Notes under the pieces: generated by a model
Told to the model about the DNA's origin: nothing
Seen by the model: only the letters and a program-made list of their open reading frames with translations
Databases searched by the model: none
Source of the DNA: Carcharhinus amblyrhynchos
Taxonomy: Eukaryota
Direction: 5' to 3'
Assembly: GCA_965287045.1 (NCBI GenBank)
Contig: OZ336870.1
Span: 84,382,001 to 84,446,000, forward strand
Length of the DNA stretch: 64,000 bases
Part shown: piece by piece, positions 7,751 through 48,924 of the stretch
Layout: each line of letters opens with the position of its first letter
How positions within the stretch are numbered: position 1 is the stretch's first letter
Position numbers and translations under genes: made by a program

Positions 7751-8103
7751 TGTTCATCCTGAGTACCCTCATCATTAGATGTGCCCTGGGAGGTTTGGAG
7801 ATCTGTTGGACTGACTGACTGGCTGGCCATGATTGCTTATGCTTGCAAAATACAAATGGACAGTGTTTGCGGATAAAGCTGATACAGAATTTGTAGCACT
7901 CAGTGTGAATTGCAGGAATTGGCAATGCAATGGCGCTGAGATCTTTAACAAATTGTTGTGGGGGACTAAGCTCGGACTCCCCACAGGACCGATCCTGGTC
8001 CTCGCCACTGAGCTCTGCAGCAGCCTCCTCGCACTTGGTGGGGGCAGTAAGCTTTGCCATTGCTCCTCATGCATAGGCTAGCTCAAGTTTGTTATGGAAA
8101 CAA

Positions 8104-8310
8104 CATGAGGTGGAGATGCTGACGTTGGACTGGGGTGGGCACAATGTCTCACAATACCAGGTTAAAGTCCAACAGGTTTATTTGACATCATGAGCTTTCA
8201 GAGTGCTGCTCCTTCATCAGGTGAGTGGACTGAAGGAGCAGTGCTTGGAAAGTTTGTGATTCCAAACAAACCTGTTGGACTTTCATCTGCTGTTGTGGGA
8301 CTTCTTACTA
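8104..8310. mobile_element. Palindromic Penelope-derived short element (copy 1)
   Basis: Same leader and inverted arms as 47858..48068; minus-strand core TCAC-CTGATGA-A-GGAG..CTCT-GAAA-GC-TC-ATGA at 8188..8224. Confidence 0.7.
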
Positions 8311-8789
8311 TGAAGACAACAGAAAGAGATGTGATGAAAGGGAACGGAGCCGAGATTGGGTGAAATGCATGTGTGTGATGAGCTTCCCCAGGAAGGACAG
8401 AGTTTGGATTTTCAGCAAAAAGACAGATGGGATAGTGGTGATGTGAAATTCTTGTTGATGGAGTAAGTATTGATATGTGTCCCCCACAACGGAATGTGAG
8501 AGCGCTATGGATAGTATAGCTGTTTGAGTACATGATGTCATGCTGAGAGAGAGGAGGGAATTGAGAAATGACTTTACCTTGGGAGAGCAGTTGAGATCAT
8601 TCATCTGCTTCCTGCACTGGGTGGTACTTCTCAAGTGGGTGGCAGCCACACTGACACCCTGGGCAATGGCCTTCCAGGCCAGTGATGTGTGCTTTCTCGA
8701 GCCAACCCCTAGTTAGAGGATATGCCAGCGCTCCCTGAATAAGGACCTCAAGGCCTCTGGTGCTGATGGCTGTGTTGCCTTCTTATTGA

Positions 8790-9024: not shown

Positions 9025-9366
9025 AGGGTGGCATAGTAGCACATGGTTAGCACTGGTGCTTCACAGCTTCAGGGACCTGGGTTCGATTCCCGGCTTGGGT
9101 CACCGTCTGTGTGGAGTTTGCACATTCTCCTTGTTTCTGCATGGGTTTCCTCCGGGTGCTTTGCTTTCTTCCCACAGTCCAAAGATGTGTGGGTTAAGTT
9201 GATTGGCCATGCTAAAATTGCCCCTCAGTGTCCTGAGGTCCGTAGGTTAGAGGGATTAGTGGGTAATTATGTAGGGATAGGGGGGTAGGGCCTGGGTGGG
9301 ATTGTGGTCAGTGCAGACTCGATGGGCCAAATGACCTCTTTCTGCACTGTATGATTTCTATGATTT
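9025..9366 (+). mobile_element. HE1-like V-SINE, full length
   Basis: Pol III A box (tagcacatggttag), B box (ggttcgattcc), V core, CR1-derived tail ending tatgatttctatg. Confidence 0.92.
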
Positions 9367-9634
9367 AATGAGGTTCCAGATGTGTAATTTGGAGCTGGAT
9401 CCTGCCATTCTTACATAGAAACCAGCAGGAAAGATTCCATGAGAGCCACCCACCCTCACACTTAATCTCAAAATGGGAGAATTCCACCCTTTGTATCTAA
9501 TATAACTGAGACAGTAAGTTATTCTGAATGTGTTATTAGAAGCAATTTTTATCAGAAGAATCAACAACCAGAAAAATTACCTCAATTCCACATATCTGAA
9601 GTTAAAGTTTGTTTTAAAGATGATTTTTTTTATA

Positions 9635-9983
9635 GGGCGGCACGGTAGCACAGTGGCTAGCACTGCTGCTTCACAGCTCCAGGGACCTGGGTTTGATTCC
9701 CGGCTTGGGTCACTGTCTGTATGGAGTTTGCACAGTCTCCTCATGTGTGCGTGGGTTTCCTCCAGGTGCTTTGCTTTCCTCCCACAGTCTAAAGATGTGT
9801 GGGTTAGGTTGATTGGCCATGATAAAATTGCCCCTCAGTGTCCTGAGATGCGTAGGTTAGAGGGATTAGTGGGTAAGTATGTAGAGATATGGGGGTGGGG
9901 CCTGGGTGGGATTGCGGTCAGTACAGACTCAATGGACCAAATGGCCTCTTTCTGTACTGTAGGGTTTCTATGATGATTTCTAT
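9635..9983 (+). mobile_element. HE1-like V-SINE, full length
   Basis: Highly similar to 9025..9366 throughout. Confidence 0.92.
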
Positions 9984-21913: not shown

Positions 21914-22608
21914 TGTAGTTGAAGTGCCTGTGTTCATTTAAGATTGGGACTTTGAAACTTCTGCTAGGGCCAGACAAGAGACATCTAGGGAAGGATTGTG
22001 AGCCCACTGTGTCATGCTGGAAGCACAATAAGAAGTCTCACAACACCAGGTTAAAGTCCAACAGGTTTATTTGTCACAAACACCACTAGCTTTTGGAACT
22101 GACTGTTCCTCCATCAGGTGGGTGGGAGTATTCCTGATGAAGAATTAGCCAGTTCCAAAAGCTAGTGGCGTTTGCTACAAATAAACTGTTGGACTTTAAC
22201 CTAGTGTTGTGAGACTTCTTACTATGTTTACCCCAGTCCAACGCTGGCATCTCCACATCATGCTGGAAGTACAGTGAGGTAACTGCAAGCATTTAAATGG
22301 TCTTATCTTATCTGGCGCAGGGCCATTGCAAAAAGGGGATAAAGAAAGGGCCGAGAGAGGCATCATTTCTGCAATTGGGCAAGTATGACCTGGTCAGTCA
22401 TTCAGAAGTCATGCACAGAGAAGCTGTCAGCAGATCGATCATCTGAGGTGAACTCTACCACTCTGGAACACCAGCAACAGGTATTGTGAAGATGTGCTAC
22501 TGCTTAGTTGTGTAATAAAAGGTACACCATATACAGTAACCAAGTTATTGTGAGTCATTGATACCCAGAATAAAAATGTGAACTCTTAGATCTAGTAAGA
22601 CTTCTACA
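21914..22608 (+). mobile_element. Probable old solo LTR containing the Penelope-derived palindrome
   Basis: TGTAG...CTACA ends, AATAAA ~22514; TSD only 3/5 (gaaac/ggatc). Confidence 0.4.
22022..22262. mobile_element. Palindromic Penelope-derived short element (copy 2, opposite orientation)
   Basis: taagaagtctcacaacaccaggttaaagtccaacag... / ...ctgttggactttaacctagtgttgtgagacttctta inverted arms, leader reverse-complemented at the right end. Confidence 0.7.
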
Positions 22609-34201: not shown

Positions 34202-35113
<912 letters not shown>

Positions 35114-36599
35114 TGAGAGCAAAGCCAGGGAACCCCCAACACCCTGATTCCCACACAGGGGACAAGGTGAACATGGGATCAAAGTGTATGAAGTTCCAGT
35201 TAAACTCGCTGTGCACCTTACAGTCAGGCGATTCGTCTTTGCACGAACTTTTTCTCCAAGCACTGTTGCGGCCCCTTTTCCTTACTCTTGTTTTCGATGC
35301 GTGTGGGAGTTCCTGCATGAGGTAGGAATTAATTCTGATTGCATTGAAAATTGATTCATTCAGCTAAAACGGGCGAGTAGCTCCACACAAACATTTCCCA
35401 TTAACTCTAGGTCAATGATCCCAAGCCCTTCCACTACCCAACCATTGTTGACATGTGGAAAAGCAAATAACGCACCTTTCTTTAGGACTTGAAGGTATTC
35501 CCATTCAGGACAGAAAGTGGACTATACATTTACAATGGGGAGGAGTTGGGGGGGGGGGGTGGAATTCCCAACAGGAGTTGGGCACAGAACACCCCCAGCT
35601 TCCTTCTAACATTCCTCCTATTCGTTTGGGAACAAGTGGCCAAGTTTAGAAACTGCACAATAATCGCGTGGGTTCCCCTTTTGACTTTCTGTAGAATTAA
35701 CTTCTATAAAACATCTCAGCTAGTGGTATATAAAACGTTCATGTTTGGTTCAGTGTATTTCTAAAATGAGATTCGGTGCACTTGATCGTTTTGGGCACGG
35801 CTGTAGTCCCGAAGCCTGTGAGAGAACTGCTCAACTCAGTGGATGGGAAAAGCACCGATGGCTTTTGAATTATTTTGCTTTATTGTTGGAAGGACTGGAG
35901 TCAGCTTCGAGTCAATTCAAACAGCGAGCAGTCAGAGTGTAAACACTAGAGAGAGGGGGGCTGAGTGTGGGGAGGCAGCACTAACCGGTATCAAAGAGAC
36001 AAATCAGCCTACCAGAGGGAGCAGGATCGATCAAGGAAAAGTCTTGTGTGTGGATTACTTTCAGATTTGCCGGAATATCGCCTTTCAGCGGTGAGATCAA
36101 TAGTGAATCCCCATAGTACAGAATCCTGACTCGTCGGCATACTGTCATGACAGCAAGAAAACATTTCAGCCCCTTCTCTGCTGTCACTGTCTATTCAGAC
36201 GTTTGTTCCTTATTGGCCCCCATTGTCATTTTTTAAACGAGGCAACGCCGAATGATTTATCTGTACGATCCTCCAGCAGGATATGCAAGAACGCGCTGGT
36301 AATAGTGTTGGACTCCTCGCTGCCGATAGTAAACAGATGTTGTATAATTGAGTCGGCATCTATGCAGTTCTGAATATAAACAAAGCAACCAGGCATGCAA
36401 ACTGTTAAAAGCCCCATTCATTCCACACACGACTGATATATATATACGTATGAGGATATAGGACAAGAGACGTGGGATATCATTCAATGTGAACTGGGCA
36501 GAGACTTGAAGTTTTGTTTAGAGCTACAGCGTGACCAGGAATTTTGTTTATATCACAGCTGCCCAGTTATTGAAGCTAAAATCTTAGCCTAGCAATGGG

Positions 36600-40831: not shown

Positions 40832-42800
40832 TCCATTTTTTATTCATTCAGATAATGTAAGCATTGCTGACCAGACCAGAATTAATGGCCTTAATGCTGT
40901 TGAGAAAGTTTGGGGGAGGGGGAATAGTCTTGAGCCACTGAAGTCCTGATGCTGCACATGGGTACACCTAGAGAGTTATTAGAGAGAAACTTCTGGGATT
41001 GTGAACCAGTAACAGTGAAGTAATGGCAAAATATTTCTAATCAGGATCAGAGTGGTGAGTAACTTGTAGGTGGTGGTTCATATAAGCATCTGCAGCCCTT
41101 GTTCTTCAAGATGGTGCAGAGCATAGGTTTGGAAAGTCTTACTGAAGAATTTTTGACAAGTTGCTGGGGTGCATCTTGCAGATGGTACACACTCCTGTCA
41201 CTGTGTACCATCTGCAAGATGCACCCCAGCAACTTGTCAAAAATTCTTCAGTAAGACTTTCCAAACCTATGCTCTGCACCATCTTGAAGAACAAGGGCTG
41301 CAGATGCTTATATGAACCACCACCTACAAGTTACTCACCACTCTGATCCTGATTAGAAATATTTTGCCATTACTTCACTGTTACTGGTTCACAATCCCAG
41401 AAGTTTCTCTCTAATAACTCTCTAGGTGTACCCATGTGCAGCATCAGGACTTCAGTGGCTCAAGACTATTCCCCCTCCCCCAAACTTTCTCAACAGCATT
41501 AAGGCCATTAATTCTGGTCTGGTCAGCAATGCTTACATTATCTGAATGAATAATGGCAGTGGAGGAAATGAATGGTTAAAGAGGTGAATGAGGTGCCAAT
41601 AAAGAGAACTGCTTTATCCTGGATGGTATCAAACTTCTTGAAATTTTTGAGGCGAGTGAAGAGTATTCCATCTGACTCCTGACTTGTGCCTTGTAGATGG
41701 TGGACCGGCTTGAAGGAGTCAGGCGTTGAGTTACTTATCATAGAATTGCCTGCCTCTTGTCTGCTCATGTGGACACTATGTTTATATGGCTAGTTCAGTA
41801 AAGTTTCTGGTCAATAGTAATGTCCAGGATGTTGAGGCTGGTGGATTCACTAATGATAATGTTGAATGTTAAAGGGAGATGGTTAGAATCTCTCTTATAG
41901 GAAATGGTTATTGTCTGGCGCTTGTGCGGCTTAACTGTTAATTGCCACCTAACACAAGCCAGAATGTTGTCCAGGTCTCCCTGCATATGGACGTAGGCTG
42001 CTTCATTATCTGAGGAGCTGCAAGTTGTGCTGAACATTGTGCAATTATCAGCAATCCTGCTTTTCATCCTATGATGGAGACAAGGTAATTTATAAAACCA
42101 TTGAAAATGGTTGGGCCCAGGCCACTGTTTGAGGAATTTCTACAATGAGTGCTGCAGACGAGAAGGTTCACATCCAGCATTCACTACCATCTTCTTTTGT
42201 GCTATGTATGATTTCAACATTACTCACACTTTCAATTCCCATTAACTTCAGTATCATTTGGGGTCCTTGATCTAAACTTGGTCAAATCCGACCTTGATGT
42301 CAAAGACAGTCTCACCTTATTTCTGGGATCTGCTGTTAAGTCCATGTTTGGACCAAAGCCATAATGAGCTCTGAAGCCGAGTAGCCCTGGTAGAACTAAA
42401 CTGGACATTGGTGAGCAGCTTATTGCATTGATAACATTGCCAATGACCCCTTACATCACTTTGCTGATGACTGTGAGTAAATTGATGGGATGGCATCTGG
42501 CTAGATTGGATTAGTCCTGACTTGTGTGGCCAGAACATGCAAAGATGATTTTTCATATTTTTTGGTAGGTGCCAGTGCTGCAGTTGTACTGGAACAGCTT
42601 GGCTAGGAACTAGCTAATACTAAAGCATAATTCTTCAGCACTACACCCAGGGTTTAAATGGAGCCGATAGCCCTTTTATGACCAGTTGTAGTTTAATATC
42701 ACATGCAGTGAATTGAATTAGTTGAAGGTTGGCATCTCTGATGTTGGGGATCTAAGGGGAGACTACAATGGATCATTCATTTGGCACTTCCAGCATTGTA
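40832..42800 (-). mobile_element. Second-family LINE (CR1/L2 group), 5'-truncated, containing the palindrome
   Basis: Minus strand ADNCTMF (ADD motif), QGDLDNILA, WQLTVKPHK, KFDTIQDKA, IHFLH; 3' tail tgaatgaataaaaa. Confidence 0.85.
40840..41553. repeat. Perfect inverted repeat: 352-bp arms (40840..41191 / 41202..41553), 10-nt spacer
   Basis: Arms are exact reverse complements as read by eye; spacer CTCCTGTCAC; mirrored ORFs 41047..41232(-) and 41161..41346(+). Confidence 0.97.
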
Positions 42801-47725: not shown

Positions 47726-47857
47726 TTTGGTATTCAGCCAAAAATGCTGAGTGAATGATCCACCTCAGTATCCTCCGGAGGTCCCCAGCATTATAGATGT
47801 TAGCCTTCAGCCAATTTGATTCGTTCCATGTGATTTCAAGAAACAGCTGAAGGCACT

Positions 47858-48068
47858 GGATGTAGAGATGCCGGTGTTGGATTGGGGTGGGCATAATAAG
47901 AAACCTCACAACATCAGGTTAAAGTACAACAGGTTTATTTGGAATCACAAGCTTTCAGGGTGCTGCTCCTTCATCAGATGAGTTCACCTGATGAAGGGGC
48001 AGTGCTCCGAAAGCTCGTGATTCGAAATAAACCTGTTGGACTTTAACCTGGTGCTGTGAGACTTTTCA
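47858..48068. mobile_element. Palindromic Penelope-derived short element (copy 3)
   Basis: gatgtagagatgccggtgttgg... leader, then inverted arms (caggttaaagtacaacaggtttattt / aaataaacctgttggactttaacctg) enclosing two opposed hammerhead-like cores. Confidence 0.7.
47984..48020 (+). ncRNA. Minimal type-I hammerhead ribozyme-like motif (Penelope-type)
   Basis: TCAC-CTGATGA-A-GGGGC-AGT-GCTCC-GAAA-GC-TC-GTGA: stem I TCAC/GTGA, core CUGAUGA plus extra A, stem II, GAAA, palindromic AGCT in place of stem III, UC cleavage site. Confidence 0.6.
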
Positions 48069-48924
48069 CTGAAGGCAATGGTCCCTGATAATGTTCCAAC
48101 AATAGTACTGAGGACTTGAGCTCCAGTACTTGCTGCCCCCTAACCAAGCTGTTCCAGTACACTTACAATATTGGCAACTCCTCTACAATGTGGAAAATTG
48201 CCCAGAAATGTCCTGTACACAAGAAACAGGACAAATGCAACCCGATTTAATTACCACCCCATCAGTCTACTCTCGATCAGCAGAAAAATGATGAAAGGAA
48301 TCATCAACAGTGCTATAAAGCAGTACTTAATCAATGATAACCTGCCCACTGACCCTTAGTTTGGGTTCCACCAGGGTCACTCAGCTTCTGGCCTCATTAT
48401 AGCCTTGGTTTAAACATGGTCAAAAGAGCTGAATTCCAGAGGTGAGGTGAAAGTAACAGCCCTTAACATCAAGGCAGCATTTGACCAAGTATGGCATTAA
48501 GGAGCCCCAGCAAATCTGGAGTCAATGGGAATTAGGGGGAAAAGTCTCCATTGGTTGGAGTCATACCTGGCATAAAGAAAAATGGTTGTGGTCATTGGAG
48601 ATCGATCATCTCAGTTCCAGGACATTGCTGCAGGACTTCTTCAGGGAGGTGTTCTAGGCCCAACTATCTTCAGCTGTTGATCTGTTGGAGGCCTCCGGAG
48701 GAAGTTGTGATGGATCACCCACTCAGTATTTCTGGCTGAATGTTTCTTCACTGGGTCAAAAACCTGGAATTTTCTCCCTAACAGCACACTTGGTGTCTCT
48801 ACACTTCAGGGACTGCTATGGTTCAAGAAGGCAGCTCCCCACCATCTTTTGAAGGACAACTAGGGATGGGCAATAAATGCTTGCGTAGCCAGTGATACCC
48901 ACATCCCATTTTTAAAAAATCAGA

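Follow-up and report, generated by a model that had tools for sequence, protein, structure and literature searches.

A short hammerhead-bearing palindrome in a probable KCTD8 intron as a likely fold-back insertion of a Penelope-like element

Introduction

A palindrome of about 210 bp in the window analysed here (a single 64-kb stretch of DNA) carries two minimal hammerhead motifs head to head, one of them intact. Does such a unit spread as a mobile family of its own, does it work as a ribozyme in the intron of its host gene, or is it what a retroelement left behind in a truncated insertion? The question matters beyond this locus, as palindromes of this kind may be filed wrongly under MITEs, retrozymes or intronic ribozymes. 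MITEs are short, ORF-less, hairpin-shaped and abundant, with matching terminal inverted repeats (TIRs) and target-site duplications (TSDs) of fixed length. We examined the motif, the layout of all copies in the window, their centres, their target sites and the predicted folds of their transcripts, and compared them with published Penelope-like elements (PLEs) and hammerhead-bearing retroelements, which are cited from those parts of the sources that were accessible.

Results

The sequence-only reading that preceded this work had placed a minimal hammerhead on the + strand at 47984-48020 and a decayed mirror copy on the minus strand at 47945-47981, and our analysis recovers both. Every part of the + motif, which is of the minimal type I, is in place. 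Stem I pairs UCAC (47984-87) with GUGA (48017-20), the core letters are CUGAUGA (47988-94), an extra A (47995) and GAAA (48009-12), stem II (GGGGC/GCUCC) forms five of five pairs, including one G-U, around a 3-nt loop, and an AGCU palindrome (48012-15) is followed by C17 at 48016, after which the cut is predicted. The arm has all the sequence features of a minimal hammerhead (CUGANGA, extra base, G-C-closed stem II, GAAA, 2-nt palindrome, UH and stem I) and agrees with the PLE minimal-hammerhead consensus in the accessible supplement of PMC4209133. It is also the sole match to a minimal-hammerhead descriptor on both strands of the 64-kb window, the chance rate of which is 0.01 matches per window in 200 dinucleotide shuffles. 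The mirror motif has kept its core letters, but only three of its five stem II positions pair, G10.1-C11.1 is now G-U, and it fails the descriptor. An Rfam scan of the window with E up to 10 returned seven matches, no hammerhead among them and none on the element.

The same reading had counted three copies of the unit, and three are found, at 47860-48068 (copy A), about 8106-8308 (copy B) and 22028-22257 (copy C), the outer bounds and parts of which are collected in Table 1. All are palindromes of 205-230 bp with a common layout of a tail plus arm, a centre and an inverted arm without tail. Each of the three is a head-to-head inverted, 5'-truncated terminal copy, and the one-sided tail measures 31-37 nt. 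Copy A amounts to a PLE end reduced to its last ~125 nt; its tail of 34-37 nt stands on the left end only, which makes the unit asymmetric, and its arms (47905-47981 and 47984-48060, 77 nt each) are 86% complementary, differing at 11 of 77 positions, with nine transitions and four differences at CpG sites. Copy C has subfamily marks in both arms, namely a longer loop II and a longer spacer before AATAAA, and in both (22083-22168) the core G12 is replaced by A, which could reflect CpG decay, homogenisation of the arms or a template that was already inactive. Only one of the six hammerhead arms, the + arm of copy A, is intact.

Table 1. Features of the three copies, of the site of copy A and of the host gene, in window positions
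Feature	Position	Strand	Remark
KCTD8-like coding exon	34256..35063	+	GT donor at 35064; host gene
Copy A, entire probable fold-back PLE-type insertion	47860..48071	.	first 2-3 and last 3-4 bases common to target
One-sided tail, copy A	47860..47896	-	letters equal the loose-end consensus behind 48071 in sequencing runs
Tail-bearing arm, pLTR 3' part	47897..47983	-	start 6 nt upstream of hammerhead core
Tail-less inverted arm	47984..48071	+	start 4 nt upstream of core; AATAAA at 48026-48031
Copy B	8106..8308	+	subfamily of A, other centre; right arm without full core
Copy C	22028..22257	-	other subfamily, third centre
Copy A apparent TSD, left	47847..47859	+	13 nt; LINE ORF2 codons L-K-A-L-(D)
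Copy A apparent TSD, right	48069..48081	+	12/13; LINE codons x-K-A-M-(V); no plain TSD
Decayed LINE ORF2 (RVT_1) hosting copy A	47740..48680	+	Pfam RVT_1 E 8.9e-14, right flank; paralogue 42361-42779
Intact minimal type-I hammerhead	47984..48020	+	descriptor match and consensus of PMC4209133 (accessible part)
Decayed minimal hammerhead	47945..47981	-	stem II 3/5 pairs, descriptor failed

Across five aligned arms (the right arm of copy B was omitted from the hammerhead alignment because its core is absent), 82% of the stem cells are paired, versus 20-48% when the stems are slid. Covariation, a weak test with five arms only, consists of two pairs with two-sided change, and 255 of 500 shuffles score as high.

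The window holds other repeats besides. A 714-bp palindrome (40840-41553, centre about 41196, arms at 98.9%) is unrelated to the hammerhead element. None of its six frames has a Pfam match above the cut-off, and its origin is a very recent fold-back duplication or else an artefact of assembly. A SINE-like repeat that recurs many times in the window includes two 340-bp copies, at 9025-9364 and 9634-9974, with a spacing of 609 bp and an identity of 90%.

The centres of the three units differ. Counted from C3 of the hammerhead core as 0, the arms start at -6 and -4 in copy A, at -9 and either 0 (with a 3-nt loss) or +4 in copy B, and at -1 and about -13 to -15 in copy C, and they abut with 0-1 nt of filler. 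In this small sample there are three centres for three copies, which fall into two subfamilies (A and B versus C), and all six arms start inside a zone of ~20 nt along the 5' edge of the hammerhead, either at the core itself or upstream of it. The two arms of copy C are identical at 73 of 82 positions with two gap columns, compared with 9-17 gap columns against the arms of A and B. Between A and B, like arms agree at 60/74 and 58/68 positions and unlike arms at 58/68 and 60/74. These two copies have CpG-site changes in common, at two sites in the left arms and at one in the right arms, which could come from a shared palindromic master or from independent CpG decay.

Four of 22 listed sequencing runs (X1, X8, X15 and X20) were compared with a 901-nt stretch made of copy A and its LINE flanks. 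The contigs placed on it number 51,676, 47,775, 57,615 and 27,628, with a depth peak on the arms; the summed contig depths were not taken as copy numbers. At the centre, loose letters before 47984 occur in 721 contigs of X1, 729 of X8 and 844 of X15 (median 49, 90 and 99 nt) and in 333 contigs of X20, and loose letters behind 47983 in 271 contigs of X1; the median length of these stretches is 48 nt and more. The loose-end consensus resembles the centres of B and C at its end, with a low agreement of 0.36-0.38. That contigs leave the reference at the centre points to the end of an abundant longer repeat and not to one fixed 210-bp unit. Other centre positions are among the joints listed, some without a hammerhead on one arm, with 2-14 contigs each. 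The joints listed also include a few contigs that connect 47941-47945 with 48016-48026, so that both arms end just downstream of the predicted cut; if these joints are real, some templates were cleaved, and subfamily divergence could mimic them. At the core position G12, the loose-end consensus of the copy C subfamily has A in X1 and X15 and G in X8.

Copies B and C are flanked by TSDs of variable length. That of copy B has 13 nt (8093-8105 and 8309-8321, 11/13 matching), with a score reached by 29 of 1498 random site pairs, and that of copy C has 16 nt (22012-22027 and 22258-22273, 15/16), with a score reached by none of 1498; copy A is ambiguous. For copy A, a plain 13-nt TSD, whose score is reached by 2 of 1498 random pairs, was first taken and then doubted, since both copies of the repeat consist of LINE codons. 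The LINE frame around the insertion reads L-K-A-L-D up to 47861 on the left and K-A-M-V-P-D on the right, and 85 of 150 LINE-like proteins contain 91 K[AS]xGxD motifs with L four residues before the K in 80 and one residue before it in 1. It is this spacing in the LINE relatives, together with the reading frames of the flanks, that identifies the two copies as LINE codons. The apparent TSD is at least partly a near-repeat of the host LINE itself. Either copy A inserted without duplicating its target, with 2-6 target bases lost, or it made a true duplication that later lost 18 nt between near-repeats. The paralogous decayed LINE at 42361-42779 (minus strand) matches both flanks and spans the insertion site of copy A, with a short deletion of its own there, and its motif spacing is intermediate between these two models. 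A word-seeded protein search found no close relatives of the host LINE at E 1e-20, and in the PDB it has weak L1 ORF2 matches only.

A contig of run X1 bridges the right junction of copy A with one letter different, and the junction is therefore no assembly slip. In X15, a contig with the left flank and 27 nt of the tail (31 letters are needed to count as bridging) hints at an insertion at the orthologous site, and no empty site of copy A was seen among the contigs of the four runs. The LINE fragment that hosts copy A is itself bracketed by a 59-nt inverted repeat (80%; 47732-47790 and 48683-48741), an inverted repeat of the LINE start that stands directly after the LINE's 3' break.

The best PDB match of the ORF at 34202-35116 is the KCTD8 H1 domain (248 bits over 119 aa), ahead of KCTD16 (236 bits) and KCTD12 (204 bits). 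The host is a vertebrate, and its repeats suggest a cartilaginous fish. With this exon on the + strand and followed by a GT donor, copy A has the orientation of the gene and lies 12.8 kb into a probable intron; the claim that it lies sense to KCTD8 inside its intron thus holds for the orientation and is probable for the intron. The next KCTD8 exon was not found in the 64-kb window by a search with exon-2 motifs. Antisense to the coding exon, an Rfam mir-2968 match (34573-34675, minus strand; 44.6 bits, below the cut-off of 70) probably reflects conserved coding sequence.

The + transcript of copy A is predicted to fold into a single long hairpin (-131.9 kcal/mol, z -12.8), and the minus-strand transcript likewise into a single hairpin (-119.2 kcal/mol). 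In the + transcript, 12 of 13 core positions are predicted to be unpaired less than 3% of the time, and forcing the hammerhead fold would carry a penalty of 43.5 kcal/mol. Transcription on the + strand makes the complementary arm before the hammerhead arm. The sequence-only reading had expected a transcript of either strand to contain a hammerhead; this is true only as letters. The core letters stand on both strands, but the minus motif is decayed, and whichever strand is transcribed, the predicted 77-bp hairpin would engage the core in pairing.

Our assignment of copy A to the PLEs rests on motif and layout. None of the searches, the metagenome and viral scans included, linked a PLE ORF to this pLTR, and PLE ORF remnants may be present elsewhere in the window. 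A 28-nt arm pattern had no match in the metagenome scan and an 18-nt pattern matched 77 metagenome loci and one viral locus; as relatives these 78 were rejected, for BLAST aligned no more than 32 bases, the best locus (L027) had no further likeness, and the matches are put down to chance.

Discussion

We conclude that copy A is likely to be the dead insertion of a PLE with an endonuclease, its 5' truncation maximal and the fold-back made during this insertion event. The earlier proposal of two inverted Penelope termini with head-to-head minimal hammerheads is supported by layout and motif. In such an event, the RT/GIY-YIG protein of the parent would have nicked both target strands, and each target 3' end would have served as a primer for copying pLTR RNA, on one strand from the outer start site, which gives the tail, and on the other from the inner site, which gives none. 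Both cDNAs, about 85-125 nt long, would have reached no further than the 5' edge of an uncleaved hammerhead, and the two short cDNAs would then have been joined head to head. The hammerhead would be a passenger in need of a same-sense partner or of the element's protein, and the intact + core may be the sole arm of six that has escaped decay so far. All six ends of copies A, B and C share 2-5 nt with the element's continuation, overlaps that fit priming at both ends, an argument that is partly circular at the tail end. The model does not require them, given that the accessible text of the anole study reports priming without target homology (PMC11167929). As the arm starts lie upstream of the cut at +28, the templates appear to have been uncleaved. 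It is possible that the inverted arm is made not by twin priming but by self-priming (fold-back), as proposed in PMC3846280. Points against our reading are that all three window copies share one short palindromic size, which is not expected from random truncation, and that only three full copies are readable.

A rival reading is a non-autonomous palindromic family, or several such families, transcribed and mobilised as a unit by a PLE protein in trans. We consider this improbable. In its favour, each window copy is a palindrome of 205-230 bp with a one-sided tail, abundance in the four sequencing runs is very high, some CpG-site changes recur between the corresponding arms of A and B, and pLTR sequences alone can mobilise in trans (PMC3846280). 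However, three copies have three different centres and belong to two subfamilies, the right arm of B has lost the core, A and B resemble each other no more in like arms than in unlike ones, many contigs depart from the reference at the centre, and the RNA would be one stiff hairpin. Spreading of the unit as a family in its own right is not supported, given the variable centres of all three copies and, further, their asymmetric ends, their differing TSD lengths, the lack of a tandem array, and subfamily marks that are in both arms of C and missing from A and B. Variable centres had been named as what independent deletion products of full-length elements would show; the variable centres are there, but the copies look like products of the insertion reaction and not like later deletions, since B and C have TSDs of their own. 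It is very improbable that copy A derives from a longer PLE that carried inverted terminal repeats and lost its middle after insertion: variable centres would fit, and full-length PLEs with flanking inverted repeats are common (PMC2377424; PMC3846280, as far as accessible), yet in both arms three independent deletions would all have had to come to within about 20 nt of the core and end there, and ORF-like sequence is absent from all three centres.

Hardly any credence can be given to the idea that the KCTD8 intron has retained a functional ribozyme which, dimerised or assisted by a protein, cuts the pre-mRNA after C48016. Its core and both stems are intact and it is sense to the gene, but transcription reaches the complementary arm first and this arm is predicted to pair with the core, the descriptor finds no second intact hammerhead on either strand of the 64-kb window, and the stem covariation of the five arms, weak test as it is, does not rise above that of shuffles. 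One intact arm in six, along with transition-rich differences between the arms, is what neutral decay is expected to leave. In the accessible text of PMC4209133, single minimal hammerheads have no detectable cleavage in vitro and dimers little, and the hammerhead of the anole PLE cuts only with the element's protein and is dispensable for insertion (PMC11167929, in part). From the predicted folds, the copy A motif is unlikely to work as a ribozyme and would most likely be folded shut and idle.

Within the truncated-insertion reading, a tentative idea, which we regard as possible but doubtful, could account for the short size. The stumps may be fossil 'strong-stop-like' PLE products, in which both nicked strands prime at the two internal start sites of a pLTR near the 5' end of the parent's mRNA, synthesis runs off the template there (or is halted by the hammerhead fold), and the products join head to head. 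In the PLE of D. virilis, 46 nt separate the transcript start from the beginning of the intron (PMC2377424), whose other end is at helix I (PMC4209133); there the hammerhead thus lies near the mRNA 5' end, and this is what makes run-off or stalling a lead for the short size. If true, the centres of many copies would map the transcript start or stall site at base resolution, templates would be shown to be uncleaved by the hammerhead, and the origin of inverted pLTRs, an open step of the PLE cycle, would be explained. The locus itself, a decayed retroelement stump in a LINE inside a probable intron, is of little import, but its class is a large natural record of Penelope insertion. Should arm starts cluster at the hammerhead 5' edge genome-wide, twin priming could be distinguished from self-priming, and ribozyme action before insertion could be shown or not.

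Among known systems, non-LTR retrozymes resemble copy A in being short, ORF-less, hammerhead-bearing and pLTR-derived, but they are head-to-tail tandems with same-sense hammerheads and circular RNA (PMC7229834; bioRxiv 10.64898/2026.07.22.740005; both accessible in part), whereas copy A is inverted and its two motifs cannot share one RNA. We rejected a retrozyme identity, as none of the three loci has a tandem unit and the window has one descriptor match. The class of copy A is also short, ORF-less, hairpin-shaped and abundant like MITEs; that identity was rejected too, given a one-sided tail in place of matching TIRs, TSDs of 13 and 16 nt, a variable centre and retroelement-end sequence. The likeness to a retrozyme or MITE drawn by the sequence-only reading is therefore not upheld, there being no head-to-tail units, no matching terminal inverted repeats and no fixed TSD length.

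The closest likenesses are within the PLEs. Metazoan PLE minimal hammerheads have, like copy A, CUGANGA plus an extra base, G10.1-C11.1, palindromic 15.2/16.2 without stem III and a short stem I (PMC4209133, accessible part). In the supplement file of that study examined here, the stem I letters of copy A are those of the lamprey PLE row and its GC palindrome that of the painted-turtle row, and there is no cartilaginous-fish row. The same source noted in 2014 opposite-strand pairs of minimal hammerheads 100-700 bp apart; unlike these, the arms of copy A abut directly. Our literature searches, with most subscription papers and the repeat databases outside their coverage, yielded no description of stumps of this kind from cartilaginous fish and none of a clustering of centres. 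The protein of the anole PLE cuts and extends both target strands, two internal start sites define its tail, and its hammerhead cleavage is protein-assisted (PMC11167929). In that source, as far as accessible, Poseidon PAc of Anolis carolinensis has, like copy A, a pair of ends downstream of the hammerhead that are spaced by about 35 nt and match two RT start sites, an AC-rich tail end and a hammerhead that is uncleaved in the inserted DNA. The PAc ORF starts within the hammerhead, whereas the core ATG of copy A reaches a stop after nine codons, so the ORF start of the parent must lie elsewhere. Insertions of EN+ PLEs often consist of an inverted truncated copy and a one-sided tail of 30-40 bp, with a TSD that is variable or absent (PMC3846280; PMC8557442; tail length also in PMC11167929; all in part). 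Their complex forms share with copy A the head-to-head inverted arms, the tail at one end and the variable or missing TSD; copy A differs in having no ORF and no direct pLTR, with both arms ending at the hammerhead within about 210 bp. Copy A is an ordinary case of this known PLE insertion pattern of inverted pLTR plus tail.
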